This document shows, piece after piece, positions 4,271 to 29,048 of a stretch of 64,000 bases of DNA (its first letter is position 1; every line of letters begins with the position of its first letter). Origin of the DNA: a virus. Taxonomy: Duplodnaviria; Heunggongvirae; Uroviricota; Caudoviricetes. A program made the translations under genes and the position numbers. A model generated the notes under the pieces. The model saw only the letters and a list, made by a program, of their open reading frames with translations. It was not told the origin of the DNA and did no database searches. The stretch covers positions 17,878 through 81,877 of the IMG/VR virus record IMGVR_UViG_3300028601_000028; one strand, 5' to 3'.

Positions 4271-4984
4271 ATGGGAGCTAATACAAATTTAGAAAAATTA
4301 TTTTTTGCCAAGATCTTAGAAGAACCTAATCAATTTTATAAAGTAGAATCAAAATACTTTGAAAATGAATTGATTAGGTTTGTATATGATGTTATTAGAG
4401 AATATTATATAAATTCAAAAGATAAAATTGTACCTAGTCCAAAACAAGTTTGGTCTATGGTAAGTTTACAAGATGATAAAAAATTAGTTTCAAAAGAAGC
4501 TTTAAAATCATTGTTTACAGAAACAACACAAGATATAACTGATGAATGGTTAGATAGATCATTTAAAGCATGGAAATCATCAAAATATACAAGAGATAAA
4601 ATTTATGAATCCATTGATATTATAAAAAACATGGATGAAGTAAATTATGACAATGTTATGGATATTGTCGGTAGATTAAAAAAGAATTTTAGTGAGATAG
4701 ATATTATATCAAATGATGATGAAGATTTAGGGGGAGATTTTGATGATCCAGAAGAACATAAACAATTGATATCATTAAGAAAAATACCGACAGGATGGTC
4801 AAATTTAGATAAAATATTAGGTGGTGGATGGGATCATGCTACTTTTAACATAATAATGGGAGAAACTAATGTGGGTAAGTGTCTTATTTTCAACACTTTA
4901 ATAAAAATTAAAAACAAAAAAACTAATAAAATCGAAAAAATAAAAATTGGTGATTTTTTTAATATGATAAAAAAATCTTCCTAA
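4271..4984 (+). CDS. replicative DnaB-like helicase (T4 gp41-type), N-terminal fragment ending in a short split-intein N-piece
   Basis: DnaB/gp41 N-domain. Walker A GETNVGK is immediately followed by Cys204 and an intein block-A-like CLIFNTLIKIKNKKTNKIEKIKIGDF, then a stop. The rest of the helicase continues at 6543 in another frame. Confidence 0.8.
   Translation: MGANTNLEKLFFAKILEEPNQFYKVESKYFENELIRFVYDVIREYYINSKDKIVPSPKQVWSMVSLQDDKKLVSKEALKSLFTETTQDITDEWLDRSFKAWKSSKYTRDKIYESIDIIKNMDEVNYDNVMDIVGRLKKNFSEIDIISNDDEDLGGDFDDPEEHKQLISLRKIPTGWSNLDKILGGGWDHATFNIIMGETNVGKCLIFNTLIKIKNKKTNKIEKIKIGDFFNMIKKSS
4880..4984 (+). mobile_element. split intein N-fragment (34 aa, atypically short) inserted in the helicase P-loop
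   Basis: Starts with Cys directly after NVGK, where T4 gp41 has NVGKS. Block A-like sequence, followed by a stop codon. Confidence 0.6.
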
Positions 4985-5019
4985 ATTGGATTCACTTATT
5001 TTTATATATAAAAGTAAAA

Positions 5020-6138
5020 ATGATTATGAAATGTAAAATTTGTAATAATGAATCTAAAGATATTAGAGGATTATCTATTCATTTAGTAAAAAAACACCAT
5101 TTTAATAAAAATGATATTAAAAATTATTATGATAAATATTTAAAAAAAGATAATGAAGGTAAATGTTATTTTTGTGGAAAAAATTCAATTTTTAAAGATT
5201 TATCTAATGGATATCATAATATATGTGATTCTAAAGAATGTTTAGGTAAAACAAGAGCAACAGGTACATATGAATTTTTAATGTATAAATATAATTTATC
5301 AAAAGATGATGCTATAAAAATGATGAATGAAAGAGCATCTGAAAGAGGCAAAAAAATTAAAAAATCATTAAATGAAAAATTTGAAAATAATAAAAATTTT
5401 TTTAAAGAAAGATCACATCAATCAATTAACTACTGGCTGAAAAGAGGATATTCTGAAGATGATGCTAAAATAAAAGTTAAGAAAGTTACTGATATGATAC
5501 ATGAAAAAACATGGAAAAAGAGAAGAGAATATCCAGAATTATATGATGATGTTAGTCCAACACAATTAAAATATTGGTTAAAAAAAGGATATAATGAAGA
5601 AGAAGCAAAAGAAAAAGTAAAAGATAGACAAAGAACTTTTACATTAGAAAAATGTATTAAAAAATATGGTGAAGACGATGGTATAGATATTTGGATAAAA
5701 AGAAATAAAAGATGGTCTAAAAAAATGAAAGATATTTTATTAAAAAATGGAAATTATAAACAAGACTCATCAAATTTAGAAAAAATTTTTATAAATGATA
5801 TTTTAAATGAAACGAATATTAATGAATATAATTGTTATATAAATAAGCAATTTATAATATTTTGTAATAGTGATTTTTATTACACTTATGATTTCAAGTA
5901 TAATAATAAAATAATAGAATTCAATGGTGATTACTGGCATTGTAATCCTATTAAATATGATATGGATTATTTTAATATGAGAAAACAAATGTATGCTAAA
6001 GATATATGGATATATGATAAATTAAAAATTCAAAAAGCTAAAAAAGAAGGATATGATGTATTAGTTATATGGGAAAGTGATTATAAGAAAAATAAAGAAA
6101 AAATTATACAAGAATGTGTAAATTTTTTAAACAAATAA
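5020..6138 (+). CDS. free-standing homing-endonuclease-like protein (Zn-finger N-terminus, Vsr/DUF559-like PD-(D/E)xK C-domain) lying between the two helicase halves
   Basis: CxxC...CxxC motifs at the N-terminus. Repeated YWLKRGYSEDDAK-type helices. C-terminal FDFKYNNKIIEFNGDYWHCNP...GYDVLVIWESDY resembles Vsr (GCFWH...VWE). Paralogous to 8903..9883 and 25733..26791. Confidence 0.7.
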   Translation: MIMKCKICNNESKDIRGLSIHLVKKHHFNKNDIKNYYDKYLKKDNEGKCYFCGKNSIFKDLSNGYHNICDSKECLGKTRATGTYEFLMYKYNLSKDDAIKMMNERASERGKKIKKSLNEKFENNKNFFKERSHQSINYWLKRGYSEDDAKIKVKKVTDMIHEKTWKKRREYPELYDDVSPTQLKYWLKKGYNEEEAKEKVKDRQRTFTLEKCIKKYGEDDGIDIWIKRNKRWSKKMKDILLKNGNYKQDSSNLEKIFINDILNETNINEYNCYINKQFIIFCNSDFYYTYDFKYNNKIIEFNGDYWHCNPIKYDMDYFNMRKQMYAKDIWIYDKLKIQKAKKEGYDVLVIWESDYKKNKEKIIQECVNFLNK

Positions 6139-6176
6139 GAGATAATATTATAAAATATAAAAACAAAATTGTATAA

Positions 6177-6542
6177 ATGATAAGTGACAATACATATAAA
6201 AAATTTATAGAAACATTTGATGTATCAGATTGGCAAATAGAAACCGATACGGGATGGGAAGATATAAAAGAAGTTGGTAAAACAATTGAATATGATGAAT
6301 GGGTAGTAAAAACAGAAGATGGTTTAGAATTAATTTGTGCGGATGAACATATTTTATTTGATAAAAATTATAATGAAATATATGTAAAAAATTTAAAAAT
6401 AGGGGATTATATTTTATCAAAAAATGGTATTTCTAAAATAAAAGAAGTATATAAAACTGATAAAAAGTCAAATATGTATGACTTGTCTTTGTCTGATGAT
6501 TCAAATCGTAGATATTATACAAATGATATTTTATCTCACAAT
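6177..6542 (+). mobile_element. split intein C-fragment (IntC) of the helicase intein
   Basis: Ends ...TNDILSHN with +1 Ser at 6543. Block B and block F/G-like motifs present. Confidence 0.6.
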
Positions 6543-7271
6543 TCAATGTGGTTACAAAATATGGCTGCTAAAATGGCAGATAGTGGATATAATGTTGTTT
6601 ACATAACATTAGAGATGGCAAAATATAAATGTATTAAGCGTTTAGGTGCAATGAGATTAAAAATTGATATTGATGAATATGATACAATAAGTAAAGATAG
6701 TACATTTATTAAAAATAAAATAAACGAATTAAAAACAATGGCATCGTCAAATAAATTATTTGATGGTGGTAAGGTTGGTAAATTATATGTTAAAAAATTT
6801 CCAACTAGTGATTGTACAGTAACAGATTTAGAAAATTATGTTAAAAAATTTCAAGAAACAAAAAATATAAAATTAGATGCAATCGTAGTAGATTACATTA
6901 ATATTATGTCAATTGAGAAAGGTTATAATTTAGACACTATGTTATATCTTAAAGGTAAACATTTAGCAGAAGGATTAAGAAGATTAGCTGATAAGTGTGA
7001 TGTTGCTGTTATTACAGCTACACAAGTTGATAAATCAGTATGGGGAGCAAATGATATTAATTTAGATGATATACCAGAAAGTAAAGCAATAGCAGAAGCA
7101 GCGGATTCTGTTTGGGCAATAATTAGAAACCCTTCTATGAAAAAAGAAAATACATATAGATTAAAAATATTAAAATTAAGAGATGGTGAACATCATGAGG
7201 AACAAGTGAAATTTGATTTTAATACTAAATATTTAACAATGGATAATGATATATTATTTGGATCAAAATAA
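6177..7271 (+). CDS. split-intein C-fragment (122 aa) fused to the C-terminal part of the gp41/DnaB-like helicase
   Basis: Intein block B-like GLELICADEHILF and terminal ILSHN. This is followed by SMWLQNMAAKMADSGYNVVYITLEMAKYKCIKRLGAMRL, which aligns with T4 gp41 S-LGLCSLAADYLQLGHNVLYISMEMAEEVCAKRIDANML, the sequence directly after the Walker A motif. Confidence 0.8.
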   Translation: MISDNTYKKFIETFDVSDWQIETDTGWEDIKEVGKTIEYDEWVVKTEDGLELICADEHILFDKNYNEIYVKNLKIGDYILSKNGISKIKEVYKTDKKSNMYDLSLSDDSNRRYYTNDILSHNSMWLQNMAAKMADSGYNVVYITLEMAKYKCIKRLGAMRLKIDIDEYDTISKDSTFIKNKINELKTMASSNKLFDGGKVGKLYVKKFPTSDCTVTDLENYVKKFQETKNIKLDAIVVDYINIMSIEKGYNLDTMLYLKGKHLAEGLRRLADKCDVAVITATQVDKSVWGANDINLDDIPESKAIAEAADSVWAIIRNPSMKKENTYRLKILKLRDGEHHEEQVKFDFNTKYLTMDNDILFGSK

Positions 7272-7287
7272 AAAATAATAAATTGAA

Positions 7288-7974
7288 ATGAGTGATGATA
7301 AAAATTACATAAATTTTGATGACGATTTAAATCAATATGATATAGATGAAGAATCAAATATTAGTAATGATAATATAGAAGAAGATAATAATATTGATGT
7401 TGATGATGATATTATAAATAATGATGATGATAATGATTTTATTGACATTGATGATGTATCTGATATAGAGGATTGTGAAAATTTTGATCTAATTTATAAA
7501 TTTAATACTAATAAACATAGGCAAGAAGGTAAACATAGATTACAAAGAGATACTATTTTTAAAGGCAAATTAGATAAAAAAGAAAATGAAGATAATATAA
7601 GTAACAGTCATATAGATAATGATTATGATAATATTAATATATTTGATATTCATAATGATAGTGATGATTATTTAAGTACAAATGACTTAACTAAAGATGT
7701 CTATGATATACTAGATAAAAATACAGATTTAGATTTTAAACAAAATAGAAGAAAACCAAATAAAGAGGTTTTTAATAATTATTATAATTTATTAATAAGA
7801 GAATTAGGATACAGATATACAAGATCAGAGATATTTGTTGAATTATCATATTATTTTACAGATAACATATTTAATATGTTTAAACTTTTAGATAAAAAAC
7901 CAGCTACATATATAATTAAAGAATTAACACAAAAAGGATTTTTAAAAAACCTTAATGGTATTAATTTTTTATAA
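7288..7974 (+). CDS. highly acidic D/N/E-rich protein with a structured C-terminal domain
   Basis: The first ~150 aa are dominated by D, N, E and I (DDDLNQYDIDEESNISNDNIEEDNNIDVDDD). The C-terminal 80 aa are non-repetitive. Confidence 0.4.
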   Translation: MSDDKNYINFDDDLNQYDIDEESNISNDNIEEDNNIDVDDDIINNDDDNDFIDIDDVSDIEDCENFDLIYKFNTNKHRQEGKHRLQRDTIFKGKLDKKENEDNISNSHIDNDYDNINIFDIHNDSDDYLSTNDLTKDVYDILDKNTDLDFKQNRRKPNKEVFNNYYNLLIRELGYRYTRSEIFVELSYYFTDNIFNMFKLLDKKPATYIIKELTQKGFLKNLNGINFL

Positions 7975-7981
7975 AAATAAA

Positions 7982-7989
7982 TATAAATA
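7982..7989 (+). promoter_or_regulatory. T4 late-promoter-like TATAAATA box about 4 nt upstream of the nrdJ start
   Basis: Exact TATAAATA octamer at 7982..7989, ahead of the ATG at 7993. Matches are expected by chance in AT-rich DNA, so this is weak. Confidence 0.2.
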
Positions 7990-7992
7990 TAA

Positions 7993-8847
7993 ATGAATAA
8001 ATACAATAGAAAAGAAGTAGAAAAAAATACATTAGATTATTTTAAAGGTGATTCTTTAGCTACTGAAGTATGGATAAATAAATATGCATTAAAAGATTCA
8101 GATGGAAATATTTATGAATTAACACCAGATGATATGCACAAAAGATTATCTAAAGAACTAAATAGAATTGAAAATAAATATCCTAATCCATTATCAGAAG
8201 ATTTAATTTATAATCTATTAAAAGATTTTAAATATATTATCCCACAAGGAGGTCCGATGTCAGGTATAGGTAATGATTTACAAATTGTTAGTTTATCAAA
8301 TTGTTTTGTGACTGGAAATGAAAGTGATAGTTATGGTGGTATATGCAGAACTGATGAACAACAAGTACAATTAATGAAAAGAAGAGGTGGTGTAGGTCAT
8401 GATTTATCACATATTAGACCAAAAGGATCACCCGTTAAAAACTCTGCACTAACATCAACAGGAGTTGTTCCTTTTATGGAAAGATATTCTAATTCAACAA
8501 GAGAAGTAGCACAAGATGGTCGTAGAGGTGCACTCATGTTAAGTTGTTTTGCACCAGATACATTCGTATTAGTTGATTATGGTTGGGATAAAATTATTAA
8601 TGTTATTAATAAAATAAAAAACGGAGAAAAAATAAAAGCATGGACACATAATGGTTTTAAAAATATAACAGATATTCAGGAATTTATTAATAGAGATGTT
8701 TATGAAATTGAATGTGAAAATGGCAAAAAGATAGTTGTAACACCAGATCACGAATTTCAAGTTAGAAATAAAAATACAAAAAAAGAATATTTAAAAGCTA
8801 TTATTGATGTTGATATAGAAAACGAAGAATTAGTATTCTTTTTTTAA
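7993..8847 (+). CDS. nrdJ: class II (adenosylcobalamin-type) ribonucleotide reductase NrdJ, N-terminal fragment ending in a split-intein N-piece
   Basis: NrdJ-like N-terminus (KYALKDSDGN..E, GGVGHDLSHIRPKGS). The extein stops at GALMLS. Cys185 then begins an intein with block A CFAPDTFVLVDYGW and block B KKIVVTPDHEF, which runs into a stop. Confidence 0.75.
   Translation: MNKYNRKEVEKNTLDYFKGDSLATEVWINKYALKDSDGNIYELTPDDMHKRLSKELNRIENKYPNPLSEDLIYNLLKDFKYIIPQGGPMSGIGNDLQIVSLSNCFVTGNESDSYGGICRTDEQQVQLMKRRGGVGHDLSHIRPKGSPVKNSALTSTGVVPFMERYSNSTREVAQDGRRGALMLSCFAPDTFVLVDYGWDKIINVINKIKNGEKIKAWTHNGFKNITDIQEFINRDVYEIECENGKKIVVTPDHEFQVRNKNTKKEYLKAIIDVDIENEELVFFF
8545..8847 (+). mobile_element. split intein N-fragment (100 aa) in nrdJ
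   Basis: Intein blocks A and B with the T..H motif. Starts with Cys and ends at a stop codon, with no C-terminal splicing motifs in this ORF. Confidence 0.6.
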
Positions 8848-8862
8848 AAAAAACAAATTCGG

Positions 8863-8896
8863 GGTGTTTTATTTTTATATATAACAATAAAACACC
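8863..8896 (+). other. stem-loop (ggtgttttatt / aataaaacacc) between the nrdJ IntN stop and the endonuclease ORF
   Basis: Perfect 11-bp inverted repeat with a 12-nt loop. It is not followed by a T-tract, so it is not a classic terminator. Confidence 0.35.
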
Positions 8897-8902
8897 TTAA
8901 AA

Positions 8903-9883
8903 ATGAAAATAAAATTAAAGAAAATTAAAGAAGACAGAATTAGAATTATCTATAAAATAGATCAATATGATATTAATTTAGATAATAAAATATTTAAAAT
9001 TAATAAAAATACATCTAATTTGAGTGCATATTTAAATAATAAAGGGGATAATTTGATTAATTTTTTAAATAAATCAATTAATAATAAATGTATAAATTGT
9101 TCAAATACAGTAACGAAAAATAGATTTGAAAGAAATAAATTCATTACGTATAAATTTTGTGATAATTGTAATAATATTGAAAATTGGAATAAATATGATA
9201 AAGTAAATTGTATAATATGTAATACTGAACTTTTTAAAAAAGATATGATATTTTCAACATGTGGAAAAGAAGAATGTAAAAATACACATAGAAATAACAT
9301 TAATAAAATAATTAAAAATACACATTGGACTAAAAAAGAAAATGTTAATGAAATTTTAAAAAAAAGAAGTGAAAAAAGATTGTCTAATGATAAAAAATTA
9401 AATAGAAAATACAAAGCATGGAATAAAGGGAAAAAGGGCATATATACAAAAGAAACAATAGAAAAAATAAGAAATTCTACAATTAAACAAATGAAAGAAG
9501 GTAAAATTAAAAAAACTAAAATTGAAATAATATTTGAAAATTTTTTAATTGAAAATGATATAAAATATGTATATTCTTTTATTTATAAAAAAAGACAATT
9601 CGATTTTTATTTAAAAGATTATAATTTAATAATTGAAATAAATGGTGATTATTGGCACGCAAATCCTAAATTTTGGGATATTTATGGTAATGATAATAAT
9701 AAAAAAAAGTTATACGAAACACAAAAAATGAAGATTAAAGATGACATAATTAAAGAGAAAATGATAGAAGATTCTAATTATAAATTTATTAAATTTTGGG
9801 AAGATGATATACATAATAATTTTTCATTAATTATAGAAACTTTAATTAAAAAATTTAATATAAAAATAAAAAATAAAAAATAA
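8903..9883 (+). CDS. free-standing homing-endonuclease-like protein (Zn-finger + Vsr/DUF559-like), between the nrdJ halves
   Basis: Multiple Cx2C Zn-binding motifs. C-terminal QFDFYLKDYNLIIEINGDYWHANPKFWD...KFIKFWEDD motif shared with 5020..6138 and 25733..26791. Its stop is only 3 nt before the IntC start at 9887, in the same frame. Confidence 0.65.
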   Translation: MKIKLKKIKEDRIRIIYKIDQYDINLDNKIFKINKNTSNLSAYLNNKGDNLINFLNKSINNKCINCSNTVTKNRFERNKFITYKFCDNCNNIENWNKYDKVNCIICNTELFKKDMIFSTCGKEECKNTHRNNINKIIKNTHWTKKENVNEILKKRSEKRLSNDKKLNRKYKAWNKGKKGIYTKETIEKIRNSTIKQMKEGKIKKTKIEIIFENFLIENDIKYVYSFIYKKRQFDFYLKDYNLIIEINGDYWHANPKFWDIYGNDNNKKKLYETQKMKIKDDIIKEKMIEDSNYKFIKFWEDDIHNNFSLIIETLIKKFNIKIKNKK

Positions 9884-9886
9884 AAA

Positions 9887-10003
9887 ATGGATAAAACTTA
9901 TAGTAAAATATTTAAAATAACAAAAAAGGGTAAAAGTAATGTTTATGATTTTACTGTTGATGAAACACATAGAATACTCGCTAATAATTTTTATACTTCA
10001 AAT
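9887..10003 (+). mobile_element. split intein C-fragment (39 aa) of the first nrdJ intein
   Basis: Block F/G-like VYDFTVDETHRILANNFYTSN followed by +1 Cys (CHVKHPD...). Confidence 0.55.
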
Positions 10004-13000
10004 TGTCATGTCAAACATCCTGACGCAGAGGATTTTATAGATGCTAAAATGACACAGGGAAAAGTTACTGGTGCTAATGTTTCTGTTAAATTGGATGACG
10101 AATTTATGAAATGTGTTATCGAAGAAAAACCATATATACAAAAATATCCAATCGATTCTGATAATCCAATTTTCACAAAAGAAATAGATGCTAAAAAATT
10201 ATGGAAAAAAATTATTTATAATGCTTGGAAATCTGCTGAACCAGGTTTGCTATTTTGGGATACTGTTATTAAAGAATCAGTACCTGATTGTTATACTGAA
10301 CATGGGTTTAAAACGGTGAGCACTAACCCCTGTGTTGTGGGTGATACTAAAATATCCGTTGCTGATGGAAGAATGGGTGTAACAATTAAAGAATTAGCAG
10401 AAGAATCAAAAGATGTACCTGTTTATTGTTTAGATAATAATGGGGAATTAGCAATTCGTATAATGAGAAATCCACGTATAACAGGTTATAATAAACAAAT
10501 TTATAAAATTACATTAGACAATGGACAATATATTAGGGTTACTGGTAATCATAAATTTAGATTAAAAAACGGAACATATATAGAAGCTAAAGATTTAAAA
10601 AATGGTGATAGTCTTGATGTTTTTTCAAAGGTTATTATAAATAATAATAAAAGAAAAAACAATTACTATACATTAGTAAATAATTCTAATTCATATCTTG
10701 AACATAGAATGGTATCAGAATTTAATAACGGTAGAAAATTAAATGAAAATGAAGTAGTTCATCATATCGATTATAATGGATTAAATAATAATATTAACAA
10801 TTTAAAAATTATGACTATTGATGAACATAATTCATTACATAGAATTGATAAATTAGGTAATAAAAATCCATATCACAGGATGTCAGATGAATGGAAATTT
10901 AATTTTGCATCAAGAAAGGGTGACACAAATAATAAATTTTGTGGTATATATAATGATGAAATTAAAGAACATTTTATAAAACTAACAAAAAAATTAAATA
11001 GAAGAATATCTAAAAAAGATTGGGTTGAATATGCTAAAGAAAACAATTTACCTCAATATTTTTCTTCTTATAGAAGAAATTACGGAGGAGATATTGTATC
11101 ATTAGCTAAATTAGTATCATTAGAATTAAATATAGATAATAATTTTGTTGATGTAGATCCTAGAATTGTAAAAACTTATAAAAAATCTTTATCAGAAGGT
11201 TATAATTCTAAAATAGATAATAATTCAGTAATAGTAGAAAAACAATGTGAACATTGTGGTGAATTATTTTGGGTAGATTATCAAAAAAGAGAAATTAGTT
11301 TTTGTTCACAAAAATGTGCAAATGTTTATATAAATACCGATAAAAATATTAAATTAAAGAGAAAAATATCTATTAATGATACATATAAACAAAAGATGAT
11401 AAACATCAAAAATAAACAAATGGATATTTTCAAAAAATTAGAATTTAATTTAAAAAGGTGTCCTAAATTAAAAGAATGGGAAAAAGAATGTAAATTAAAT
11501 AATATTCCATATAGATTAAAAACTAAATATGGTTATCAAACATTTAGTGATATTAAAAAAGAATCAGAATATTATAACCATAGAGTAATATCTATTGAGT
11601 TAGATGGATTTGAAAATGTATATAATGGAACAGTTGATGATTTTCATAATTTTTTCAGTGGTGAATTTGAAGAAACTACAAAAACAAATAATAAAAAATA
11701 TGTTTATATTAATCAATTAAACTGTGGTGAGATCCCCTTAAATGTAGGTGACTCTTGTAGATTACTGGCATTAAATTTATATTCTTATGTAGAAAACCCA
11801 TTTACAAAAGATGCAAAATTTAACTATGATTTATTTAAAGAACATGTTATTTATGCACAAAGATTTATGGATGATATTGTTGATTTAGAAATAGAAAAAA
11901 TTGATCAAATTTTAAATAAAATTGATAATGATCCAGAGCCAGAACATATTAAAAGAGTTGAAAGAGAATTGTGGAAATTGATTAAAGACAATGCAGTAAA
12001 AGGTAGAAGAACAGGATTAGGAATTACATCAGAAGGTGATATGATTGCAGCGATGGGGTTAATTTATGGCACATCAGAAGCTACTGATTTTGCAGAAAAT
12101 ATACATAAAATATTGGCTACTTATGCTTATAAATCTTCTATAATAATGGCAGAAGAAAGAGGTTCATTTACAGTATTTAATAAGGATAATGAAAAAAATA
12201 ACCCATTTGTAAATAGAGTTCTTAATTCTTTGAAAGAATTTAAAGAAAATGATATTATAGAAAAGTATAATAAAACAGGACGAAGAAATATATCATTACT
12301 TACAATTGCACCAACTGGTTCTGTTAGTATAGTTACACAAACGACATCTGGAATAGAACCAGTATTTTTACCATCTTATACTAGAAGAAGAAAAATAAAC
12401 CCAAATGATAAAAATACTAAAACATCATTTATTGATGAAGTTGGTGATCATTGGGAAGAATATAATGTATTTCATCATAAGTTTAAAACATGGGCTGAAA
12501 TAAATGGTTATGATACATCTAAACTAGAAACAATGAAACAATCCGAACTAGATGATATAATCAAAAAATCCCCATATTTTAAAGCAACATCTAACGATGT
12601 TAATTGGGTAGAAAAGGTTAGAATGCAGGGTAAAATTCAAAAATGGGTAGATCATTCTATATCTGTTACTATTAATTTACCTTCAGATGTTACAGAAGAA
12701 TTAGTATCACAAGTATATCAAACAGGGTGGGAGTCTGGATGTAAAGGAATTACTGTATATAGAGATGGTTCTAGAAGTGGTGTATTGATAACAAAAACAG
12801 ATAATAAGAAAGCAAATATTTTTCAAGAAAATAATGCACCAAAAAGACCAGAATCATTACAGTGTGATGTTTATAGATTCCAAAATAAGGGAGATAAATG
12901 GATTGGGTTTATGGGATTATTAGATAATAAACCATATGAGATATTTACAGGTCTGCAAGAAAGTGTAAATATACCTAATAATATAACAAAAGGTGAGATT

Positions 13001-13381
13001 AAAAAAGTTAAATCAGCTGAATCTGATGGACATTCTAGATATGATTTTATTTATATAGATAAAGATGGATATAAACAAGAATTTAGAGGGTTATCTAGGG
13101 CATTTAATAGAGAATTTTGGAATACAGGTAGATTGATTTCCGCAGTTCTAAGACATGGTATGCCGTTACCAAATGTTTTACAAATAATGGATAAATTAAT
13201 ATTTGATAGTGATGATGTTATAACATCATGGAAACAAGGTATTAAAAGAATTATAAAAAAATATATAAAAGAAGGAACATTAGTAAAAGGACAAACATGT
13301 GATGTATGTGGTTCATCTAATATAGTTTTTAAAGAAGGTTGCATGACTTGTATGGATTGTGGTACATCTAAATGTGAATAG
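9887..13381 (+). CDS. nrdJ: NrdJ C-terminal portion: split-intein C-fragment (39 aa) + RNR extein, itself interrupted by a second, contiguous HNH-containing intein
   Basis: Starts with an IntC ending VYDFTVDETHRILANNFYTSN|C. The extein then runs to STNP. A Cys-initiated intein follows (aa 149-612) with an HNH motif. The extein resumes with CGEIPL, the class II RNR active-site motif TNPCGEIxL. The C-terminal zinc ribbon CDVCGSS..CMTCMDCG is typical of NrdJ. Confidence 0.8.
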   Translation: MDKTYSKIFKITKKGKSNVYDFTVDETHRILANNFYTSNCHVKHPDAEDFIDAKMTQGKVTGANVSVKLDDEFMKCVIEEKPYIQKYPIDSDNPIFTKEIDAKKLWKKIIYNAWKSAEPGLLFWDTVIKESVPDCYTEHGFKTVSTNPCVVGDTKISVADGRMGVTIKELAEESKDVPVYCLDNNGELAIRIMRNPRITGYNKQIYKITLDNGQYIRVTGNHKFRLKNGTYIEAKDLKNGDSLDVFSKVIINNNKRKNNYYTLVNNSNSYLEHRMVSEFNNGRKLNENEVVHHIDYNGLNNNINNLKIMTIDEHNSLHRIDKLGNKNPYHRMSDEWKFNFASRKGDTNNKFCGIYNDEIKEHFIKLTKKLNRRISKKDWVEYAKENNLPQYFSSYRRNYGGDIVSLAKLVSLELNIDNNFVDVDPRIVKTYKKSLSEGYNSKIDNNSVIVEKQCEHCGELFWVDYQKREISFCSQKCANVYINTDKNIKLKRKISINDTYKQKMINIKNKQMDIFKKLEFNLKRCPKLKEWEKECKLNNIPYRLKTKYGYQTFSDIKKESEYYNHRVISIELDGFENVYNGTVDDFHNFFSGEFEETTKTNNKKYVYINQLNCGEIPLNVGDSCRLLALNLYSYVENPFTKDAKFNYDLFKEHVIYAQRFMDDIVDLEIEKIDQILNKIDNDPEPEHIKRVERELWKLIKDNAVKGRRTGLGITSEGDMIAAMGLIYGTSEATDFAENIHKILATYAYKSSIIMAEERGSFTVFNKDNEKNNPFVNRVLNSLKEFKENDIIEKYNKTGRRNISLLTIAPTGSVSIVTQTTSGIEPVFLPSYTRRRKINPNDKNTKTSFIDEVGDHWEEYNVFHHKFKTWAEINGYDTSKLETMKQSELDDIIKKSPYFKATSNDVNWVEKVRMQGKIQKWVDHSISVTINLPSDVTEELVSQVYQTGWESGCKGITVYRDGSRSGVLITKTDNKKANIFQENNAPKRPESLQCDVYRFQNKGDKWIGFMGLLDNKPYEIFTGLQESVNIPNNITKGEIKKVKSAESDGHSRYDFIYIDKDGYKQEFRGLSRAFNREFWNTGRLISAVLRHGMPLPNVLQIMDKLIFDSDDVITSWKQGIKRIIKKYIKEGTLVKGQTCDVCGSSNIVFKEGCMTCMDCGTSKCE
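10331..11722 (+). mobile_element. contiguous intein (464 aa) with HNH homing-endonuclease domain inserted between TNP and CGEIPL of NrdJ
   Basis: Begins CVVGDTKISVADG (block A) directly after STNP. Internal HNH motif VVHHIDYNGLNNNINNLKIMTIDEHNSLH. Ends ...YINQLN, followed by extein CGEIPLNVGDSC. Confidence 0.7.
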
Positions 13382-13386
13382 ATAAA

Positions 13387-13418
13387 AAGACTCATTTAAA
13401 TGAGTCTTTTTTATTTTA
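13387..13418 (+). terminator. rho-independent terminator after nrdJ
   Basis: Perfect palindrome aagactcattt-aaatgagtctt followed by ttttttatttt. Confidence 0.7.
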
Positions 13419-13473
13419 AAATGATTTTAGAACCATTGTTATATTATATATAATAATAAAAACATATATTAAA

Positions 13474-13677
13474 ATGGAAGAACAAATTACAATAGAACAA
13501 TTAATAGAAATTTTAGAAGATGCTAAACAAGATTATGATAAATTTTATGGCAGAAATATTAAAGCAGCGTCAACTAGACTTAGAAAAAAAATACAAGATG
13601 TTTCTAAACTAACAAAAGTAATGAGAAAACAAATAATTGATTATAAAAAGACAATTAAGAAAAAAGGGGAAATTTAA
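13474..13677 (+). CDS. small lysine-rich protein (67 aa)
   Basis: ORF with its stop codon inside the loop of the downstream terminator hairpin. Confidence 0.35.
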   Translation: MEEQITIEQLIEILEDAKQDYDKFYGRNIKAASTRLRKKIQDVSKLTKVMRKQIIDYKKTIKKKGEI

Positions 13678-13692
13678 ATTTCCCCTTTTTTT
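13661..13692. terminator. bidirectional rho-independent terminator between convergent genes
   Basis: aaaaagggg-aaatttaaattt-cccctttttt: GGGG/CCCC stem with A-run and T-run flanks. Stops of both convergent ORFs abut it. Confidence 0.75.
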
Positions 13693-14038
13693 ACATATTA
13701 AAAATATCTTTTATTACTTCTTTAAATTTATCTTTGCTTACACCCCCAACCATCATTTGTGGCTTTTCATCAACAGGTATAAATAATAAACTAGGTACAC
13801 TTTTAATCCCGAACATAGCTGATAATTCTTGCTCTTCTTCTACATCTATTTTATAAAAATTGATATTATCATATTCATTATCTAATTCATCTAAAATTGG
13901 TTGAATTTGCTTGCAAGGCTGACACCATGAAGCTGTAAATTTTAAAATTGTAGGTTTATTTCCTAAATATTTCCAATCTTGATTATTTTCAAAATCAAAT
14001 ATTTCTGTTTTAAATGTTTCTAATGTTAAATTGTTCAT
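13691..14038 (-). CDS. trx: thioredoxin
   Basis: WCQPCK active-site motif (WCxPC). Size of 115 aa and the thioredoxin fold pattern (FYKIDVEE...VPSLLF). Adjacent to the RNR gene. Confidence 0.7.
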   Translation of the reverse strand: MNNLTLETFKTEIFDFENNQDWKYLGNKPTILKFTASWCQPCKQIQPILDELDNEYDNINFYKIDVEEEQELSAMFGIKSVPSLLFIPVDEKPQMMVGGVSKDKFKEVIKDIFNM

Positions 14039-18024: not shown

Positions 18025-18142
18025 AATTGTTAAAATTCTTTTTTATTATATATAAAAAAATAAAAATCATTTTTATTAAAAATAATAAAATACATATTTT
18101 TTATTTAATATATATATTAAAATATACAATTAATATATTTCT

Positions 18143-23713: not shown

Positions 23714-23722
23714 ATATTATAT

Positions 23723-24037
23723 TTATTTTTTAATATTATTTTCATTTAAATAGATATTAATAGTTTCATACTTTTTACAATTATTTATAAAATTTACTTC
23801 ATCATAAATGTCTAATTTAAACCATTCTCCATTAACTTTTTTATGTCTATAAATATTATGTAATGTTTTTTCTATTATTTTACTATAATCTGATTGATAT
23901 TCATCAACTATAATAATTTTATTAGGACAACCTGTTTGTAAATTTTTTAATCTTGAATTTACTGTACTTTTTGTATATCCTATTTTATATATTGGAGAAT
24001 TATCATCAATCATTTTTAATAAGTATACTTTTGGCAT
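23723..24037 (-). CDS. small GIY-YIG-like (T5orf172/MUG113-type) domain protein
   Basis: VYLLKMIDDNSPIYKIGYTKSTVNSRLKNLQTGCP...EKTLHNIYRHKKVNGEWFKL matches the T5orf172 pattern (YiY...g.iKIG.T.....Rl..l......E..lH..f...r..gEWF). Confidence 0.5.
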   Translation of the reverse strand: MPKVYLLKMIDDNSPIYKIGYTKSTVNSRLKNLQTGCPNKIIIVDEYQSDYSKIIEKTLHNIYRHKKVNGEWFKLDIYDEVNFINNCKKYETINIYLNENNIKK

Positions 24038-24354: not shown

Positions 24355-24410
24355 AATTAATTTGTTATTTTTTAAAATTATTTAATTATTTATTATATTT
24401 TATTAATGTT

Positions 24411-24713
24411 TTAAAGTTTATTTTCATTTAAAAAATTATTTAGTATTTCTTCTGTATTTGGTATGCTATTATGTATAAAATAGATTAATTCGTTTATTTT
24501 ATCATAGTCATAAATATTATCAATGTTTAATTTTATTAATAATTTGTCTTCTGGTACTATTCTAATATTTCCATTTCTATCATACCAATATCCTATTTCA
24601 TATATATCTTCACCTGCAATCATATTTAATAATAACGCTACACCATTATCTATTTTACCAATATAATCAATTATACTTATGGATATTGGTAAATCTTTAA
24701 TAATATCATTCAT
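24411..24713 (-). CDS. hypothetical protein (100 aa)
   Basis: ORF. Confidence 0.35.
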   Translation of the reverse strand: MNDIIKDLPISISIIDYIGKIDNGVALLLNMIAGEDIYEIGYWYDRNGNIRIVPEDKLLIKLNIDNIYDYDKINELIYFIHNSIPNTEEILNNFLNENKL

Positions 24714-24764
24714 ATAAATAGAAACATTTTATTTTTATATATAATAGAAAATAATATTTGTTTT

Positions 24765-25136
24765 ATGCCAAACGCGGATATTAAAGATTTTAATATTAGA
24801 TATAAAGGACATCCAAAATTTAAAGATTTAAAATTAATAGAGGATAGAACATTAGAAGTAATAATACAGAAATTAGAAATGATGCTTTTTACAAATAAAG
24901 GCGAAGTTCTAAATGATTATAATTTTGGTGCCAATTTAGAGTATTATTTATGGTCAACTAAAGTACCTGTAAATAGAATAAAAGATGAAATACAAGAACA
25001 AATAAATCAATATATACCAGAATTAAATAATTATGAATATACAATTGATACAAAATTATATAATGGTACAAAAAGAGATATTTTATTTATAAATATAAAT
25101 ATAAAAGATATTGAAGTTACATTTCTCTTAAAATAA
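24765..25136 (+). CDS. gp25/GPW-like baseplate wedge protein
   Basis: LEVIIQKLEMMLFTNKGEVLNDYNFGANLEYYLW...IKDEIQEQINQYIPEL follows the T4 gp25 pattern LRSIKNSLLGIITTRKGSRPFDPEFGCDLSDQLFE...VERNIESAVRNYEPRI. Confidence 0.5.
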   Translation: MPNADIKDFNIRYKGHPKFKDLKLIEDRTLEVIIQKLEMMLFTNKGEVLNDYNFGANLEYYLWSTKVPVNRIKDEIQEQINQYIPELNNYEYTIDTKLYNGTKRDILFININIKDIEVTFLLK

Positions 25137-25145
25137 AAATGTATT

Positions 25146-25670
25146 ATGAAATTAAATAAAAATGAGTTAGATGAAAAGTATATTAATATATTAACAACCA
25201 ATAGAGTTAATGATATTATAGAAAAACAAAATTTAAATTTAAAATTAACCAAAGATGAACATATATGGTTTGATAGGCAATTTGGTGTTCGTAGAGCAAA
25301 TCTAAAATTTGCACATACAAAAAAAGAATTAGAGGAATATACCAAATGTAAGATGGATATTCATTATTTTGCTGATAATTATTGTCAAATAAAAAGAGAA
25401 GATGGTACAATAGGACCAATGAAATTAAGAGATTACCAAAAAGATATTTTAGATTTATATGCAAATAACAGGTACTCAATATTAATGGCTAGCCGGCAAA
25501 TGGGAAAATGCAACTCTTTGATTTCTAAAGTGTTAGTAAAAGATAATAATGGAAAAGAGTTTAATATAACAATCGGTGAATTATATTATACTTATATTCA
25601 ACAAGAAAGAAAATTAACACTAATAGAAATATTAAAATTATTTTTATATAAAATATTGTCATTTTTATAA
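25146..25670 (+). CDS. terL: large terminase subunit (T4 gp17-type), N-terminal fragment ending in a split-intein N-piece
   Basis: Walker A SRQMGK (T4: SRQLGKT). The threonine position is taken by Cys122, which starts the intein block A CNSLISKVLVKDNNGKEFNITIGEL. A stop follows after 53 aa. Confidence 0.8.
   Translation: MKLNKNELDEKYINILTTNRVNDIIEKQNLNLKLTKDEHIWFDRQFGVRRANLKFAHTKKELEEYTKCKMDIHYFADNYCQIKREDGTIGPMKLRDYQKDILDLYANNRYSILMASRQMGKCNSLISKVLVKDNNGKEFNITIGELYYTYIQQERKLTLIEILKLFLYKILSFL
25509..25670 (+). mobile_element. split intein N-fragment (53 aa) in terL Walker A
   Basis: Cys-initiated block A. No block B within this piece; block B is in the downstream ORF. Confidence 0.6.
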
Positions 25671-25732
25671 ATTACTTTACCAAATTATCTTTTAGCCATA
25701 AAATTTTTATATATAAAAGAAAAAATAAAAAT

Positions 25733-26791
25733 ATGAAAATTAAAATATTAAGTAAATTAAAAGAAAAAAATATTGTTATTAAAGAAAATATAATAATTAA
25801 TGATAATGATGAATCTGTTACATCTAGAATTGATGGAACTCAAAGAAAAAGGATATATGGTAAATATTTAAAAAGTATTGGTTTAACAAGCGAAGAATAT
25901 AAAATATTATTTCCTGATGCACCATTGATGGCAAAATCTGATTATAAAAATACTACTAAAAATTCAGGTCAACATATGAAACAAGAAAAATATAAACGAC
26001 TTTTTTCAGAAAAAATTAAAGGATGTAAAAATCCAAATCATAAATCAAAAACTACAGAAAAAGAAAGAAAAGAACGAAGTCCTTTTAGTAAAGATTTTTA
26101 TAAAAATAAATATAAAAATATAACAGATAAAGATATTGATTATATTAGAAAAAATTTTATAAAAGACTTTATTAAAGATAGAGTCACAACAACTCAAATC
26201 GAATATTATTTAAATAAAGGTTATGATGAAAAAACATCAAAAAAAATGTTGTCTGAAAGACAAAAAACATTTAGTTTAGATTTATGTATTAAAAAATATG
26301 GCAACGATAAAGGAAAAGAAATTTGGAATAATAGGCAAATAAAATGGCAAAAATCGTTATTACAAAATGGTAATTTAAAATGTGGATATTCCAAAATATC
26401 ACAAAAATTATTTTATGATATTTTAAATAAATATAATATTAATGATAAATCTTATATTTATTTTGCTACAAAAAATCAAGAATATTATTTATCTGGTGGA
26501 AAAGAATTATTTTATCAATATGATTTTGTTGATTTAAAAAATAAAAAGATAATAGAATATAATGGAGATCAATATCACGCTAATCCAAAAATATATGAAT
26601 CAAATGATAATCCACACCCGTTTAGAAAAAACATAACAGCTCAAGAAATTTGGGATAAAGATAATAATAAAATACAATTAGCTCACGATAATGGATTTGA
26701 AGTATTAATAGTATGGGATTCAGAATATAAAGAAAATAAAGAAATAATATTAAAAAAATGTTTAAATTTTTTAAATATTAATAAAAAATAA
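25733..26791 (+). CDS. free-standing homing-endonuclease-like protein (same family as 5020..6138), between the terL halves
   Basis: YYLNKGYDEKTSKKM / RQKTFSLDLCIKKYGNDKGKEIW repeats, then QYDFVDLKNKKIIEYNGDQYHANPKIYE...GFEVLIVWDSEYKENKEIILKKCLNFL. Closely parallels 5020..6138. Confidence 0.7.
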   Translation: MKIKILSKLKEKNIVIKENIIINDNDESVTSRIDGTQRKRIYGKYLKSIGLTSEEYKILFPDAPLMAKSDYKNTTKNSGQHMKQEKYKRLFSEKIKGCKNPNHKSKTTEKERKERSPFSKDFYKNKYKNITDKDIDYIRKNFIKDFIKDRVTTTQIEYYLNKGYDEKTSKKMLSERQKTFSLDLCIKKYGNDKGKEIWNNRQIKWQKSLLQNGNLKCGYSKISQKLFYDILNKYNINDKSYIYFATKNQEYYLSGGKELFYQYDFVDLKNKKIIEYNGDQYHANPKIYESNDNPHPFRKNITAQEIWDKDNNKIQLAHDNGFEVLIVWDSEYKENKEIILKKCLNFLNINKK

Positions 26792-26798
26792 ATGGTTT

Positions 26799-27248
26799 AT
26801 GTTTAAACTTATATTAAGATTTATTATTTATAAAATAATAGAATTTATTGAAAAAATAGAATACCGAAACTATAAATTTGATAATGATAATCCATTTAAT
26901 AAAATAATCAATATTATAAATAATAATGATTTATTAATTAAAACTGATTATGGATTTGTACCATTTAGTGAAATAAATTTAACATCGCCTTTGCCACTTT
27001 ATAGATTAGAATTAGAAAACGGTGATTGGTTAGAATGTGCTGATTATCATATAGTTTTTATAAAAGGACATCATCAAAAATTCGTTAAAGATTTAACTAT
27101 TGATGATTATGTTTTATGTAAAGGTGATTATATAAATGGTGTGAAGGTAAAACGAATAACAAATTTAAAATCTAAAGTTAGTATGGTTGATATTACTGTG
27201 GATACCAATGAACGAAGTTATTATTCCAATAATATATTGTCACACAAC
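26799..27248 (+). mobile_element. split intein C-fragment (IntC) of the terL intein
   Basis: Ends SYYSNNILSHN with +1 Thr at 27249, which is the Thr of the GKT P-loop. Confidence 0.6.
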
Positions 27249-29048
27249 ACGATAAGTGCTGCCATTTTAATTCTCCATTTTTGTCTATTTAATAAAGATA
27301 AAGGGGTTATGATTGTTGCTAATAAAGGAGCAACAGTTGTTGAAATCATAGAAAAAATCAAGAGTATATACAAATTATTACCTTTCTTTTTAAAGGTTGG
27401 AATTGTTAACTGGAACCAATCTAGTATAACATTTGATAATGGGTGTAGAATAAAAACAGATAAAAGAACAAAAGAACCAGCAATCGGTTTTACGATTGAT
27501 CTACTTTATTTAGATGAATTTGCACATATACCTAATAATATTGTAGAACCATATTATACATCAGTTGTTCCAGTAGTATCATCTGTAAATAATTCAAAAA
27601 TAATAATAACATCAACCCCAAAAGGTTTAAACTTGTTTCATAAATTATTAACAGAATCAGAATTACCAGAAGATGATCCAAACTGGAATGGATATAGATC
27701 ATTAAGAATATATTGGTGGCAAATGAAATCTAGAAGAAATACAAAAATATTTTTTAATGATAAAAAATTAAGAAAATTTAAAATTAGAAAAGATGATATT
27801 AAAAAATTTTTAATAAATAAAGGTTATGATATATATTCAGAAAAAGAAAATGGTATGGATGGGATATTTATTGAACATGATAAAAAGAATGAAGAAACAA
27901 ATATAGAATTTATAAGAATGTTGAGAATGAATGATTTACCATTAGCTGAATTAGGAATCATTACCAACTGGCAAGAACAACAAACAAAATTAATTGGTGG
28001 TGAAGATGCATTTAAACAAGAATTTGATCTACACTTTATTACAGGTAATAAGATGTTATTTGATAATATTACAATTGAAAAAATAATAGAAGATAGATTA
28101 AAATTTGAATATGTTGATATAGATAAGTTTAACAAAAGATTAAAAATACCATATAATGGATTACAATTTGTAAAGGATAAAAATTTATTTAATTTAGATG
28201 AATGTAAAAATTATCATATTGGTATATCCATAGATTTAGGAGAAGGCTTAGGAAATGATTATAGTATAATAAATATATTTAGATTATTGCCAAAAACTAA
28301 AGAAGAAATAGATATACATAAGAAAAAATTTACAGATAAATATGACTATTTTAAATTAGAACAAATTGGAATATTTAAATCTAATATTTATTCAGTAAAA
28401 GAAATATCTGATATCTTATATATGATAGTATTTGAATTATTTGATGAAAACAAAGTTAAAATTGCATTAGAAAGAAATACATATGGTGATGAACTTTTAG
28501 CACACATACCACACGTGTTTAATGATAATAATAATTATTCAAATCATGTTTTCTTAAGATATAAACATAGAATTGAAGATAAAAATACTAAATTAGGTAT
28601 CAAAATAACACAAAATAAAAAAATATTAATAAAAGATTATCAGATAAATACCAAAAAAGGAAATATTATCATACATGATCAATATACAATAAATGAAATA
28701 AGTACATTTACTAGACATGATTTAGCATCAGGTGATATAACATTCAGAAGTGAATCTGGTCATGATGATGCTATTATGTCAACAATAGTTATGTCAACAA
28801 TATTTTCAATGATTAGTTATAGGGATATGATAGATGAGTATATGGAAAATAATTCATTGAATATTACAGAAGATATAAACACATTTATAGACGAATATGC
28901 AGACGATTCTCCTGATCTCATAACAATAGTAGGTGGGTATAAAAAAGTCTATAATAACCCACATAAAACACCAAATAATGGAAATTTTAATAAAAGATTC
29001 ACTCCGGTTAATCCATTATCTAAATTTCCTAGTAAAAATAGATTTTAA
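26799..29048 (+). CDS. terL: split-intein C-fragment (150 aa) fused to the remainder of the large terminase (ATPase core + nuclease domain)
   Basis: Intein block B WLECADYHIVF and terminal ILSHN. This is followed by TISAAILILHFCLFNKDKGVMIVANKGATVVEIIEKIKSIYKLLPFF, which aligns with T4 gp17 [48 protein letters not shown]. Downstream LYLDEFAHIP corresponds to gp17 IYIEDCAFIP, and IIITSTPKG to IIITTTPNG. Confidence 0.85.
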   Translation: MFKLILRFIIYKIIEFIEKIEYRNYKFDNDNPFNKIINIINNNDLLIKTDYGFVPFSEINLTSPLPLYRLELENGDWLECADYHIVFIKGHHQKFVKDLTIDDYVLCKGDYINGVKVKRITNLKSKVSMVDITVDTNERSYYSNNILSHNTISAAILILHFCLFNKDKGVMIVANKGATVVEIIEKIKSIYKLLPFFLKVGIVNWNQSSITFDNGCRIKTDKRTKEPAIGFTIDLLYLDEFAHIPNNIVEPYYTSVVPVVSSVNNSKIIITSTPKGLNLFHKLLTESELPEDDPNWNGYRSLRIYWWQMKSRRNTKIFFNDKKLRKFKIRKDDIKKFLINKGYDIYSEKENGMDGIFIEHDKKNEETNIEFIRMLRMNDLPLAELGIITNWQEQQTKLIGGEDAFKQEFDLHFITGNKMLFDNITIEKIIEDRLKFEYVDIDKFNKRLKIPYNGLQFVKDKNLFNLDECKNYHIGISIDLGEGLGNDYSIINIFRLLPKTKEEIDIHKKKFTDKYDYFKLEQIGIFKSNIYSVKEISDILYMIVFELFDENKVKIALERNTYGDELLAHIPHVFNDNNNYSNHVFLRYKHRIEDKNTKLGIKITQNKKILIKDYQINTKKGNIIIHDQYTINEISTFTRHDLASGDITFRSESGHDDAIMSTIVMSTIFSMISYRDMIDEYMENNSLNITEDINTFIDEYADDSPDLITIVGGYKKVYNNPHKTPNNGNFNKRFTPVNPLSKFPSKNRF

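Follow-up and report, generated by a model that had tools for sequence, protein, structure and literature searches.

In a 64,000-nt stretch of phage DNA (IMG/VR record IMGVR_UViG_3300028601_000028, Caudoviricetes; hereafter the window), the genes for a gp41/DnaB-like replicative helicase, a ribonucleotide reductase (RNR) and the large terminase (TerL) are each divided into two same-strand open reading frames (ORFs). These carry, in frame, the N-terminal (IntN) and C-terminal (IntC) halves of a split intein, and a third ORF for a putative homing endonuclease (HE) lies between them. We consider it likely that the segment studied (4271-29048) contains three distinct fractured genes, as defined by Dassa et al. 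(2009), which would be locus-specific selfish elements. The three cassettes are independent, old, locus-specific lineages and not recent copies of one unit.

Sister strains and about 50 related contigs were compared. The G+C content of the window is about 22%, and a megablast search with the 25-kb segment found no match among 50,697 phage records. Judged by TerL, the closest relatives are "uncultured phage" records of 634-735 kb (LR745206 and LR756501-4; 42-48% identity); a 678-kb contig from the Joint Genome Institute (L025) shows conserved synteny of UvsX, helicase-N, HE, helicase-C, a 249-aa gene and RNR. Contig L007 equals the window sequence throughout 3053-13700 with no differences, and independent assemblies of at least six samples show the same architecture.

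Architecture of the three loci

All features of the three loci are on the plus strand. The helicase N-extein (4271-4879) ends in the Walker A sequence GETNVGK and runs into an IntN of 34 aa (CLIFNT...MIKKSS; 4880-4984, with the stop codon), which is short and marks an atypical split. The spacer before the HE gene (4985-5019) contains the motif TTTTTATATATAA at 4999-5011, within a hairpin extending to the start codon. The endonuclease, helHE (5020-6138; 372 aa), has a C2H2-like zinc-finger N-terminus, helical repeats and a Vsr-like/EDxHD core. It is followed by an IntC of 122 aa (6177-6542; block B CADEH, C-terminus ...YYTNDILSHN) and by the C-extein (6543-7271; DnaB_C), which begins with the +1 Ser of SMWLQN.

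The RNR is class II-like and is interrupted twice. The N-extein (7993-8544) ends in ...RRGALMLS; the IntN of 100 aa (8545-8847; CFAPDT..., block B TPDH) is split at the canonical position. The leader hairpin (8861-8898) encloses TTTTTATATATAA (8872-8884) and precedes rnrHE (8903-9883; 326 aa), which has a CxxC-rich N-terminus and the Vsr-like core FDF...IIEINGDYWHANP. An IntC of 39 aa (9887-10003; ...NFYTSN), with weak PDB matches to the DnaE and gp41-1 inteins, leads to extein segment 2 (10004-10330), which begins with the +1 Cys of CHVKHPD and ends in STNP. Between TNP and CGE lies a contiguous HNH intein (10331-11722), followed by extein segment 3 (11723-13381). This intein matches Pfam Intein_splicing (6.5e-16) and HNH_3 (1.1e-6); an earlier reading of the same DNA, made from the letters and referred to here as the sequence-only reading, had called it a mini-intein, but at 464 aa it is of full size. 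Its +1 Cys (TNP|CGE) is presumably the thiyl-radical Cys of the RNR. At the split site, GALMLS|C, there is a conserved barrel motif, some 110 residues ahead of that Cys. The claim that all inserts sit in P-loop or active-site motifs stands for the helicase (GK|S) and for TerL (GK|T), and does not for the RNR split site; at RNR, the insert located at the Cys is the HNH intein.

The TerL N-extein (25146-25508) ends in the Walker A sequence SRQMGK. The IntN of 53 aa (25509-25670) has a conserved helical tail, RKLTLIEILKLFLYKIL (25620-25670); TTTTTATATATAA follows at 25704-25716, with no significant hairpin, before terHE (25733-26791; 352 aa; Vsr-like core YDF...IIEYNGDQYHANP), whose N-terminal zinc-finger ligands are lost. 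The IntC of 150 aa (26799-27248) consists of a helical head, FKLILRFIIYKIIEFIEKIEYRN, a block B CADYH and the end ...YYSNNILSHN, and the C-extein (27249-29048; Terminase_6N) begins with the +1 Thr of TISAAIL.

The three-ORF layout of IntN with stop, HE gene and IntC had been recognized in the sequence-only reading, and it was confirmed by the ORF layout and by Pfam: DnaB_C, Ribonuc_red_lgC, Terminase_6N, Hint/Intein_splicing and HNH_3 were each found in the expected piece. Intein-free alleles of all three genes, which that reading had proposed to look for, are present in relatives. GETNVGK|SMWLQN is uninterrupted in the helicases of L044, L047 and L065; intein-free RNR alleles occur in L044, L047, L049 and L025, with the junctions RRGALMLS|CHIKH and |ISVEH in L044 and L047; and TerL of L032 is uninterrupted (720 aa, SRQMGK|TISAAIL), with exteins 89-92% identical to those of the window. 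The splice junctions are firm because these relatives read directly through them, and the predicted spliced products equal the intein-free alleles. The inserts sit in essential genes, as had been claimed, and no second copies of the helicase, RNR or TerL exteins were found within the 64-kb window. An Rfam scan of the window gave a single hit, a tRNA-Gly(TCC) (29784-29856, +), the only RNA gene detected, and no group I intron or other RNA family; RNA elements in place of inteins are thus ruled out.

The motif TTTTTATATATAA stands 9-29 nt upstream of the start codons of helHE, rnrHE and terHE. It is also found upstream of structural genes (a gp25-like gene and the genes of an 815-aa and a 1017-aa protein), and further sites are at 24732-24744, 18046-18058 (-) and 46004-46016 (-). 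With at most one mismatch, 29 matches were counted in the window (12.4 expected). The motif is probably a phage promoter, perhaps a late one; a scan for sigma-70 promoters gave no enrichment over shuffled sequences. The rnrHE hairpin has a folding free energy of -13.5 kcal/mol (z -3.6; none of 200 shuffles as good), and that of helHE is marginal (-8.9 kcal/mol; z -2.05). No terminator was found between the gene halves at any locus, the first terminator-like site lying after RNR, at 13384-13411. This argues for co-transcription of the halves and not for a timing device; for the suggestion that splicing times replication or packaging, no evidence was obtained.

Kinship of the inteins and endonucleases

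Class 1 hallmarks are present in all four inteins: Cys1, CADEH and SHN|S in the helicase intein; Cys1, CADYH and SHN|T in TerL; Cys1, TPDH and SN|C in the RNR split intein; Cys1, TGNH and LN|C in the HNH intein. The replacement of the block B Thr by Ala in the helicase and TerL inteins is usual within their family. Both lie between the invariant Lys of Walker A and the nucleophilic Ser/Thr that follows it, at the P-loop intein site termed "classic" [Kelley et al. 2016, PMC5050341], and both are split atypically, with a short IntN and a long IntC (34/122 aa in the helicase, 53/150 aa in TerL). They are 37% identical to each other (E 2e-24), each being 58-76% identical to its orthologues elsewhere, and they are old paralogues in one P-loop intein family of at least 1162 representative clusters. 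The RNR split intein, with its canonical split, is distant from both (23-28% identity).

A profile of the helicase and TerL IntCs matched 1162 representative clusters (633 at E<=1e-10) with the hallmark ...YYTNGILSHN|[ST]. Among the 122 representatives with a recognizable junction, the IntC stood at the protein N-terminus (split) in 100 and was internal (contiguous) in 22. The exteins after these junctions resemble, by eye and not by domain search, P-loops of the TerL, DnaB/gp41, AAA+ and SMC/RecF types. A homologue search with the 122-aa helicase IntC gave nine hits, mainly helicase fragments, and was uninformative on other hosts.

The tail of the TerL IntN and the head of the IntC (LRFIIYKIIEFIEKIEYRN; 26799-26870) are alike. 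Both remain conserved in homologues as distant as about 50% identity, and LR756501 and L033-L037 have kept the tail. In the contiguous homologues P0163 and P0183, the tail- and head-like segments are consecutive, with a short linker between them. Single-sequence AlphaFold2 (AF2) prediction of the fused IntN and IntC gave a predicted local distance difference test score (pLDDT) of 51, with a confident helix only at residues 44-84. Tail and head may form a docking element for the split halves. The best PDB sequence match of the TerL intein was 6DSL_B (CatC), at E 0.006.

The ratio of nonsynonymous to synonymous polymorphism (pN/pS), window versus contig L008, is 0.07 for the helicase IntC and 0.03-0.10 for the exteins; the helicase intein is under purifying selection comparable to that on the exteins. 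This selection and the homology to Cat-TerL point to trans-splicing activity of the predicted split inteins.

The three endonucleases are related, as had been supposed: BLASTP gave 43% identity over 204 aa for helHE and terHE (E 4e-47) and about 30% over a catalytic core of about 90 aa for rnrHE against either (E ~1e-6), and phrog_22677 was matched by all three (terHE at 1.7e-27). The pattern D...E..GD..H...D is readable in each: YDF...IIEFNGDYWH...IYD in helHE, FDF...IIEINGDYWH...IKDD in rnrHE and YDF...IIEYNGDQYH...DKD in terHE. By this conserved catalytic motif all three are assigned to the EDxHD/Vsr-like family. Homologues of helHE number 888 at E<=1e-3, some of them named Vsr or C2H2 zinc finger in their source; members of its family match DUF559/MTES_1575, and D291, E300, G303 and H307 are invariant in an alignment of 26 homologues. 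The AF2 model of helHE (pLDDT 86.7) shows a predicted Vsr-like nuclease fold: its top Foldseek match in the PDB is 3R3P_B, the catalytic domain of I-Bth0305I (probability 0.98, target TM 0.66), and 1VSR (E. coli Vsr) is at rank 4, with weak E-values (0.15 for 3R3P_B, 0.46). Searches of PDB sequences with single HE sequences and with the 26-sequence profile gave nothing meaningful, and helHE is linked to I-Bth0305I and Vsr through the fold search only. The match of rnrHE to Pfam Vsr (E 3.7e-4) is under the gathering score.

In the sequence-only reading, each endonuclease had a zinc finger and a Vsr-like core. The core was found in all three, zinc-finger-like N-termini only in helHE and rnrHE. 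Orthologues of terHE (L034, L035 and L037) begin MENLITCKICGK...RHLKKH, and these ligands are gone from the window copy, which has therefore lost its finger.

Allelic states and rival explanations

Under the preferred reading, each gene would be expressed as two polypeptides, N-extein with IntN and IntC with C-extein. The intein halves would associate and undergo class 1 protein trans-splicing through Cys1, the terminal Asn and the +1 Ser (helicase), Cys (RNR) or Thr (TerL), rebuilding precisely the protein of the intein-free alleles, with the Walker A GK[S/T] restored in helicase and TerL; RNR would also require cis-splicing of the HNH intein at the presumed thiyl-radical Cys. The gap ORFs would be free-standing EDxHD/Vsr-like homing endonucleases with a predicted activity and target, and the hairpin-held motif (two of the three HEs) would restrict their translation to late transcripts, by analogy with T4 I-TevI and Aeh1 mobE. 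Each cassette would have been created long ago by the rare invasion of an intein by an HE, and would have spread among co-infecting relatives, double-strand-break repair copying it into alleles of that gene without an intein and co-converting the flanks. Once the intein is fixed, the HE would decay or be replaced, the host gene still depending on trans-splicing. The elements would be caught at different stages of this homing cycle, with one intein and HE lineage per host gene.

The helicase gives the fullest series. Of 41 related loci, 27 are intein-free, nine have a split intein with a full HE (49-61% identical), two a frameshifted HE (L058, L059) and three deletion remnants (L042, L052, L055); none has a contiguous intein. 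In L042, the leader and about the first 12 HE codons are joined to the last eight. The HE-less split alleles carry remnants and therefore arose by HE decay. The IntN protein is 100% identical in L042 and L008. Within the same phage, helHE is present in the window and L007 and absent from L008, L009, L011, L013, L015 and L016; all six HE-less contigs keep both intein halves, and their gap is a 23-nt spacer. Divergence between strains with and without the HE is restricted to the helicase gene: synonymous divergence, window versus L008, is 0.31 in the N-extein, 0.18 in IntC and 0.20 in the C-extein, 0.012 in UvsX and 0 in the next gene.

At RNR, the split intein with rnrHE is also found in L045 and L080 (IntN 80% and 76% identical, rnrHE 67% and 60%), and most relatives, L025 included, are intein-free. 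The sister strains L008 and L009 are without the HNH intein and have a LAGLIDADG intein at AWK|S instead (L008, 11082-14636), so that three different RNR intein sites occur across strains of this phage.

The TerL cassette is present in all close strains, and L034 and L037 have orthologous cassettes. The gap content varies: in L035 and L036 it holds two HEs in tandem (terHE and a DUF7487-like one), in L033 a DUF7487-type HE on the opposite strand. Of the large phage records, LR745206 (634 kb) has an intein-free TerL, and in LR756501.1 (735 kb) the TerL halves are 12.5 kb apart (609265-611352 and 623871-624356), with unrelated genes and no HE between them. Next to these halves are genes of the radical-SAM, glycosyltransferase-like and methyltransferase-like types; the record is unannotated, and these identities were read from the sequences only.

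A fourth gene shows a full and an empty state. The UvsW-like helicase of the window (33868-35436, -) is intact, with the empty site DE|SH between nt 34684 and 34683. In L001 (17443-21059) the gene is fractured at DE|(S->C)H, in the DExH box, with an IntN of 96 aa, a DUF7487-type HE of 571 aa and an IntC of 39 aa. Mismatches between the two are confined to 34063-35062, and the substitutions are concentrated within some 600 bp of the insertion point. The window UvsW gene is the empty allele of a fourth fractured gene.

Each HE subfamily keeps to its locus: the helHE type was found only in helicase inteins (49-61% identity), the rnrHE type only in the RNR split intein (60-67%) and the terHE type in TerL (43-55%). 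Across eight helicase cassettes, IntC identity followed extein identity (Mantel r 0.76, p 4e-4); HE identity gave r 0.38 against IntC and r 0.47-0.52 against the exteins. This weak HE correlation, together with the HE-only polymorphism at the helicase and the replacement of HEs in the TerL gap, indicates that HEs turn over independently of the intein. Conversely, alternating empty and full alleles, locus-specific HEs and HE decay with the intein kept are expected if the HE targets the intein-free allele and homing carries both halves along. Both modes, cassette homing and independent HE turnover, probably operate.

That the inserts represent one composite mobile unit rather than independent events, as the sequence-only reading had it, is not supported, in view of the locus-specific orthologues, the 37% identity between the helicase and TerL inteins and the different type of the RNR intein. 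Its statement that the unit "homes as a cassette" is borne out in part: whole cassettes are present or absent at UvsW, with a patch of divergence, and at TerL, where the pair of full window and empty L032 shows no divergence gradient at the intein site; the helHE-only polymorphism and decay, the swapped HEs of the TerL gap and the poor tracking of intein by HE speak against it. That the cassette was recently duplicated from helicase to TerL is ruled out: the inteins share 37% identity and the HEs 43% over a portion of their length, and each has orthologues elsewhere at 50-76%.

We regard as possible, and on balance doubtful, an obligate composite cassette, in which the HE cuts the intein-free allele, all three ORFs are copied together and the three inserts are copies of one unit. 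It would account for the full and empty pairs at UvsW and TerL, for 41 helicase loci that are either empty or split with a full, frameshifted or remnant HE and never contiguous, for the locus-specific HE subfamilies and for HE decay with a persisting intein, as would fit an HE that targets alleles without the intein. Intein type, atypical split position and HE subfamily are, moreover, common to the helicase and TerL cassettes. Near-identical strains, however, have or lack the HE alone with both intein halves retained, and the TerL gap may contain terHE, a tandem of terHE and a DUF7487-like HE, an opposite-strand DUF7487-type HE, or 12.5 kb of other genes without an HE. HE and intein are weakly correlated (r 0.38) in comparison with intein and extein (0.76), the helicase and TerL inteins are closer to outside orthologues (58-76%) than to each other (37%), and the RNR intein and the non-core part of rnrHE are unrelated to the others. 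These same HE differences, the several HE families in one TerL gap and the HE-only polymorphism at the helicase, would suit a purely modular history, which equals step II of the Dassa model: contiguous inteins came first, HEs recognizing intein DNA re-invaded the gap, and the intein itself is no longer mobile. Contiguous members of the family do exist (22 of 122 representatives; P0153 and P0158, and P0163/P0183 of the TerL subtype). We nevertheless judge it rather unlikely: the HE-less helicase alleles hold HE remnants, which indicates loss and not never-invaded ancestors, and the alternation, among close relatives, of empty L043/L044 (86% identity), split L042 (90%) and empty L032 (92%) shows that the intein is gained or lost as well.

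Domesticated regulation, in which trans-splicing or separate expression of the halves times replication or packaging, would draw on the structural-gene-type motif before each HE and hence before each C-half, on the conserved helices of IntN tail and IntC head and on LR756501, where 12.5 kb separate the TerL halves and each has its own gene neighbourhood. It is improbable, given that the halves in the window are adjacent and co-directional with no terminator between them, that close relatives manage without inteins and that the sporadic distribution is typical of selfish elements. A related scenario seems a little less remote, yet still far-fetched: in this clade of large to huge AT-rich phages, the atypically split P-loop inteins may have outlived their HEs and become fixed, HE-independent parts of essential genes, docking through the TerL tail and head may permit distant halves such as those of LR756501, and TerL trans-splicing may be obligatory and potentially regulated. 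If this were true, assembly of the packaging ATPase by trans-splicing would be a required step and not mere parasitism, with halves from different transcription units. Decaying pseudogenes or assembly artefacts, the functions being supplied from elsewhere, are hardly credible. The somewhat degenerate terHE and the fact that the data cover the 64-kb window, not the whole genome, would fit them; against them stand the identical architecture in the independent assemblies, the purifying selection on exteins and intein, intact catalytic residues, orthologous cassettes conserved to about 50% identity and the single copies within the window.

Several points weigh against the favoured reading of locus-specific homing elements. 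The helicase IntN, directly beside the HE, differs at 1 of 102 nt between strains with and without the HE, so that divergence within the patch does not simply change with distance from the HE. The UvsW cassette was found on one metagenomic contig only (the contig that also gives L001, L008 and L017). The E-value of the I-Bth0305I fold match (0.15) is weak, because the query was a multidomain model. The window terHE, with its zinc-finger ligands lost, may already be inactive. The window is part of a genome, the search for extein copies spans these 64 kb, and intact second copies may lie beyond them. Metagenome assemblies may be chimeric, yet the HE-less helicase allele was seen in six contigs from at least five samples.

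A free-standing HE of 627 aa (31988-33871, -; DUF7487, phrog_3339; Vsr-like core FEFNGVYWH) overlaps uvsW at the stop (4 nt), and its identity to the HE in the L001 UvsW intein is 49%; it has repeated KYG...SEEIK motifs and an extra C-terminal domain. Another, of 238 aa (29050-29766, +; DUF723 repeats and a Vsr-like core), lies between TerL and tRNA-Gly; it is absent from L001, L002, L003 and L005 and present in L004, L031 and L032. This HE gene and the terminal ~350 bp of TerL are 98-100% identical in DNA to L032, the rest of L032 being 75-95% identical. A 95-aa ORF (50000-50287, -), which follows a 542-aa helicase-like gene, corresponds to the C-terminal core only of this HE type and is probably a decayed copy. 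A protein of 104 aa with a T5orf172/MUG113 domain is encoded at 23723-24037 (-).

The window has a TnpB/IS605 OrfB-like gene (411 aa; 15573-16808, +) before a 135-aa ORF, and L001-L003 have a 392-aa version after that ORF; the different placement indicates that the element moved or was exchanged between strains. UvsX/RecA is intact in the window (3053-4249) and broken at residue 214/215 in L053, L063, L076, L080 and L081, the gap containing a DUF7487-like endonuclease in L053, L080 and L081 and an intein-like segment in L076. Directly upstream of the window start, L007 (1-2994) encodes a family B DNA polymerase ORF of 503 aa with exonuclease domain and motif A and no intein, which abuts two DUF723 endonuclease genes on the opposite strand; this polymerase may be split without an intein.

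Comparison with known systems

Dassa et al. (2009, PMC2677866) described fractured genes from the Global Ocean Sampling (GOS) metagenome, at the loci of gp41, NrdA/NrdJ, IMPDH, DnaE, ligase and terminase, and the marine precedent named in the sequence-only reading is correct. The GOS cases share with those of the window the one-strand three-ORF layout, gp41-type helicase, RNR and large terminase as hosts, and Vsr-like HEs. In GOS, 15 of 16 leaders ahead of the HE had a hairpin and/or a late-promoter-like element (PMC2677866); in the window, the putative promoter motif precedes all three HEs, with a significant hairpin at rnrHE, a marginal one at helHE and none at terHE. One GOS terminase has an IntC of 122 aa with an unusual break point, likewise long as in the window TerL, and the GOS locus gp41-7, without an HE, resembles L008. 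Step III of the Dassa model, HE decay, is matched by the HE-less split helicase alleles. There are also differences. All non-terminase GOS inteins are canonical (IntN 88-105 aa), whereas the helicase intein of the window, at the P-loop, is atypical (34/122 aa). The RNR is fractured here at GALMLS|C, and the two GOS RNR points lie at or next to the thiyl-radical Cys. Spacers before the HE measure 35, 55 and 62 nt in the window and 27-51 nt in GOS, and the window HEs, unlike those of GOS, do not overlap the IntC. GOS reads are short and mostly truncated; here three fractured genes stand on one contig (four on a sister contig), with an allelic series.

AceL-TerL, GOS-TerL and the consensus Cat-TerL (PDB 6DSL) are atypically split and reported to trans-splice in vitro (PMC11766414). 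The window TerL intein resembles them in its short IntN and long IntC, its large terminase host and the ending ...YYxNxI(L/V)SH(N). Its halves are longer (53/150 aa, compared with 25-37/~104 aa), the extra residues corresponding to the conserved tail and head, and it has Cys1/Thr+1 where GOS-TerL has Ser1/Cys+1.

The characterised prototype of the EDxHD family, which was first predicted from fractured genes, is I-Bth0305I [Taylor et al. 2011, PMC3239194]. The window HEs have the same D, E, D, H, D core and a predicted multidomain build in which the N-terminal part binds DNA. An intron in recA encodes I-Bth0305I, which has NUMOD-type motifs; the N-termini of helHE and rnrHE are zinc-finger-like, and both HEs lie between intein halves. 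In Aeromonas phage Aeh1 (PMC2677866; Crona et al., PMC3045599), an essential nucleotide-metabolism gene, nrdA, is likewise split by a free-standing HE (mobE, of the HNH type), with a late promoter in a hairpin ahead of it; nrdA has no intein, and its fragments join non-covalently, unlike the ligation predicted here. Actinophage inteins with an antisense Vsr-like HE (Gosselin, Arsenault and Gogarten, bioRxiv 10.1101/2025.01.02.630785) resemble the opposite-strand HE of L033; those inteins are otherwise contiguous, whereas L033 has a split TerL intein in an AT-rich large phage. Vsr-like HEs in inteins are still treated as rare in that 2025 preprint. Literature searches found nothing relevant on split inteins in huge phages, and in the collection searched "Mahaphage" and inteins never occur in one paper.

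The phage described here is tied to a clade containing huge phages, and the density of elements is high: three fractured essential genes and a fourth intein in one phage, and four fractured genes in a sister strain. In cyanobacteria, the halves of the DnaE split intein are encoded at separate loci. The LR756501 TerL, with its halves 12.5 kb apart and no HE, resembles that arrangement; in the window the halves are adjacent and bracket the HE. Most of the intermediates of the Dassa model were seen: empty site, full cassette, frameshifted HE, deletion remnant, bare split intein and unlinked halves. Patches of local divergence or identity flank several of the polymorphic inserts, the divergence patches being indirect evidence for the predicted site-specific cleavage by the HEs, and the allele pairs allow one to ask what the HE recognizes and whether intein and HE move together. 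The atypically split inteins (34/122 and 53/150 aa; Cys1, Ser or Thr at +1) are new natural members of a class wanted for protein labelling. What is provided is a natural system for the homing cycle and no new mechanism, and current understanding stands: the arrangement has been known since 2009, and the long contigs, with neighbouring genes and alleles, add to it.

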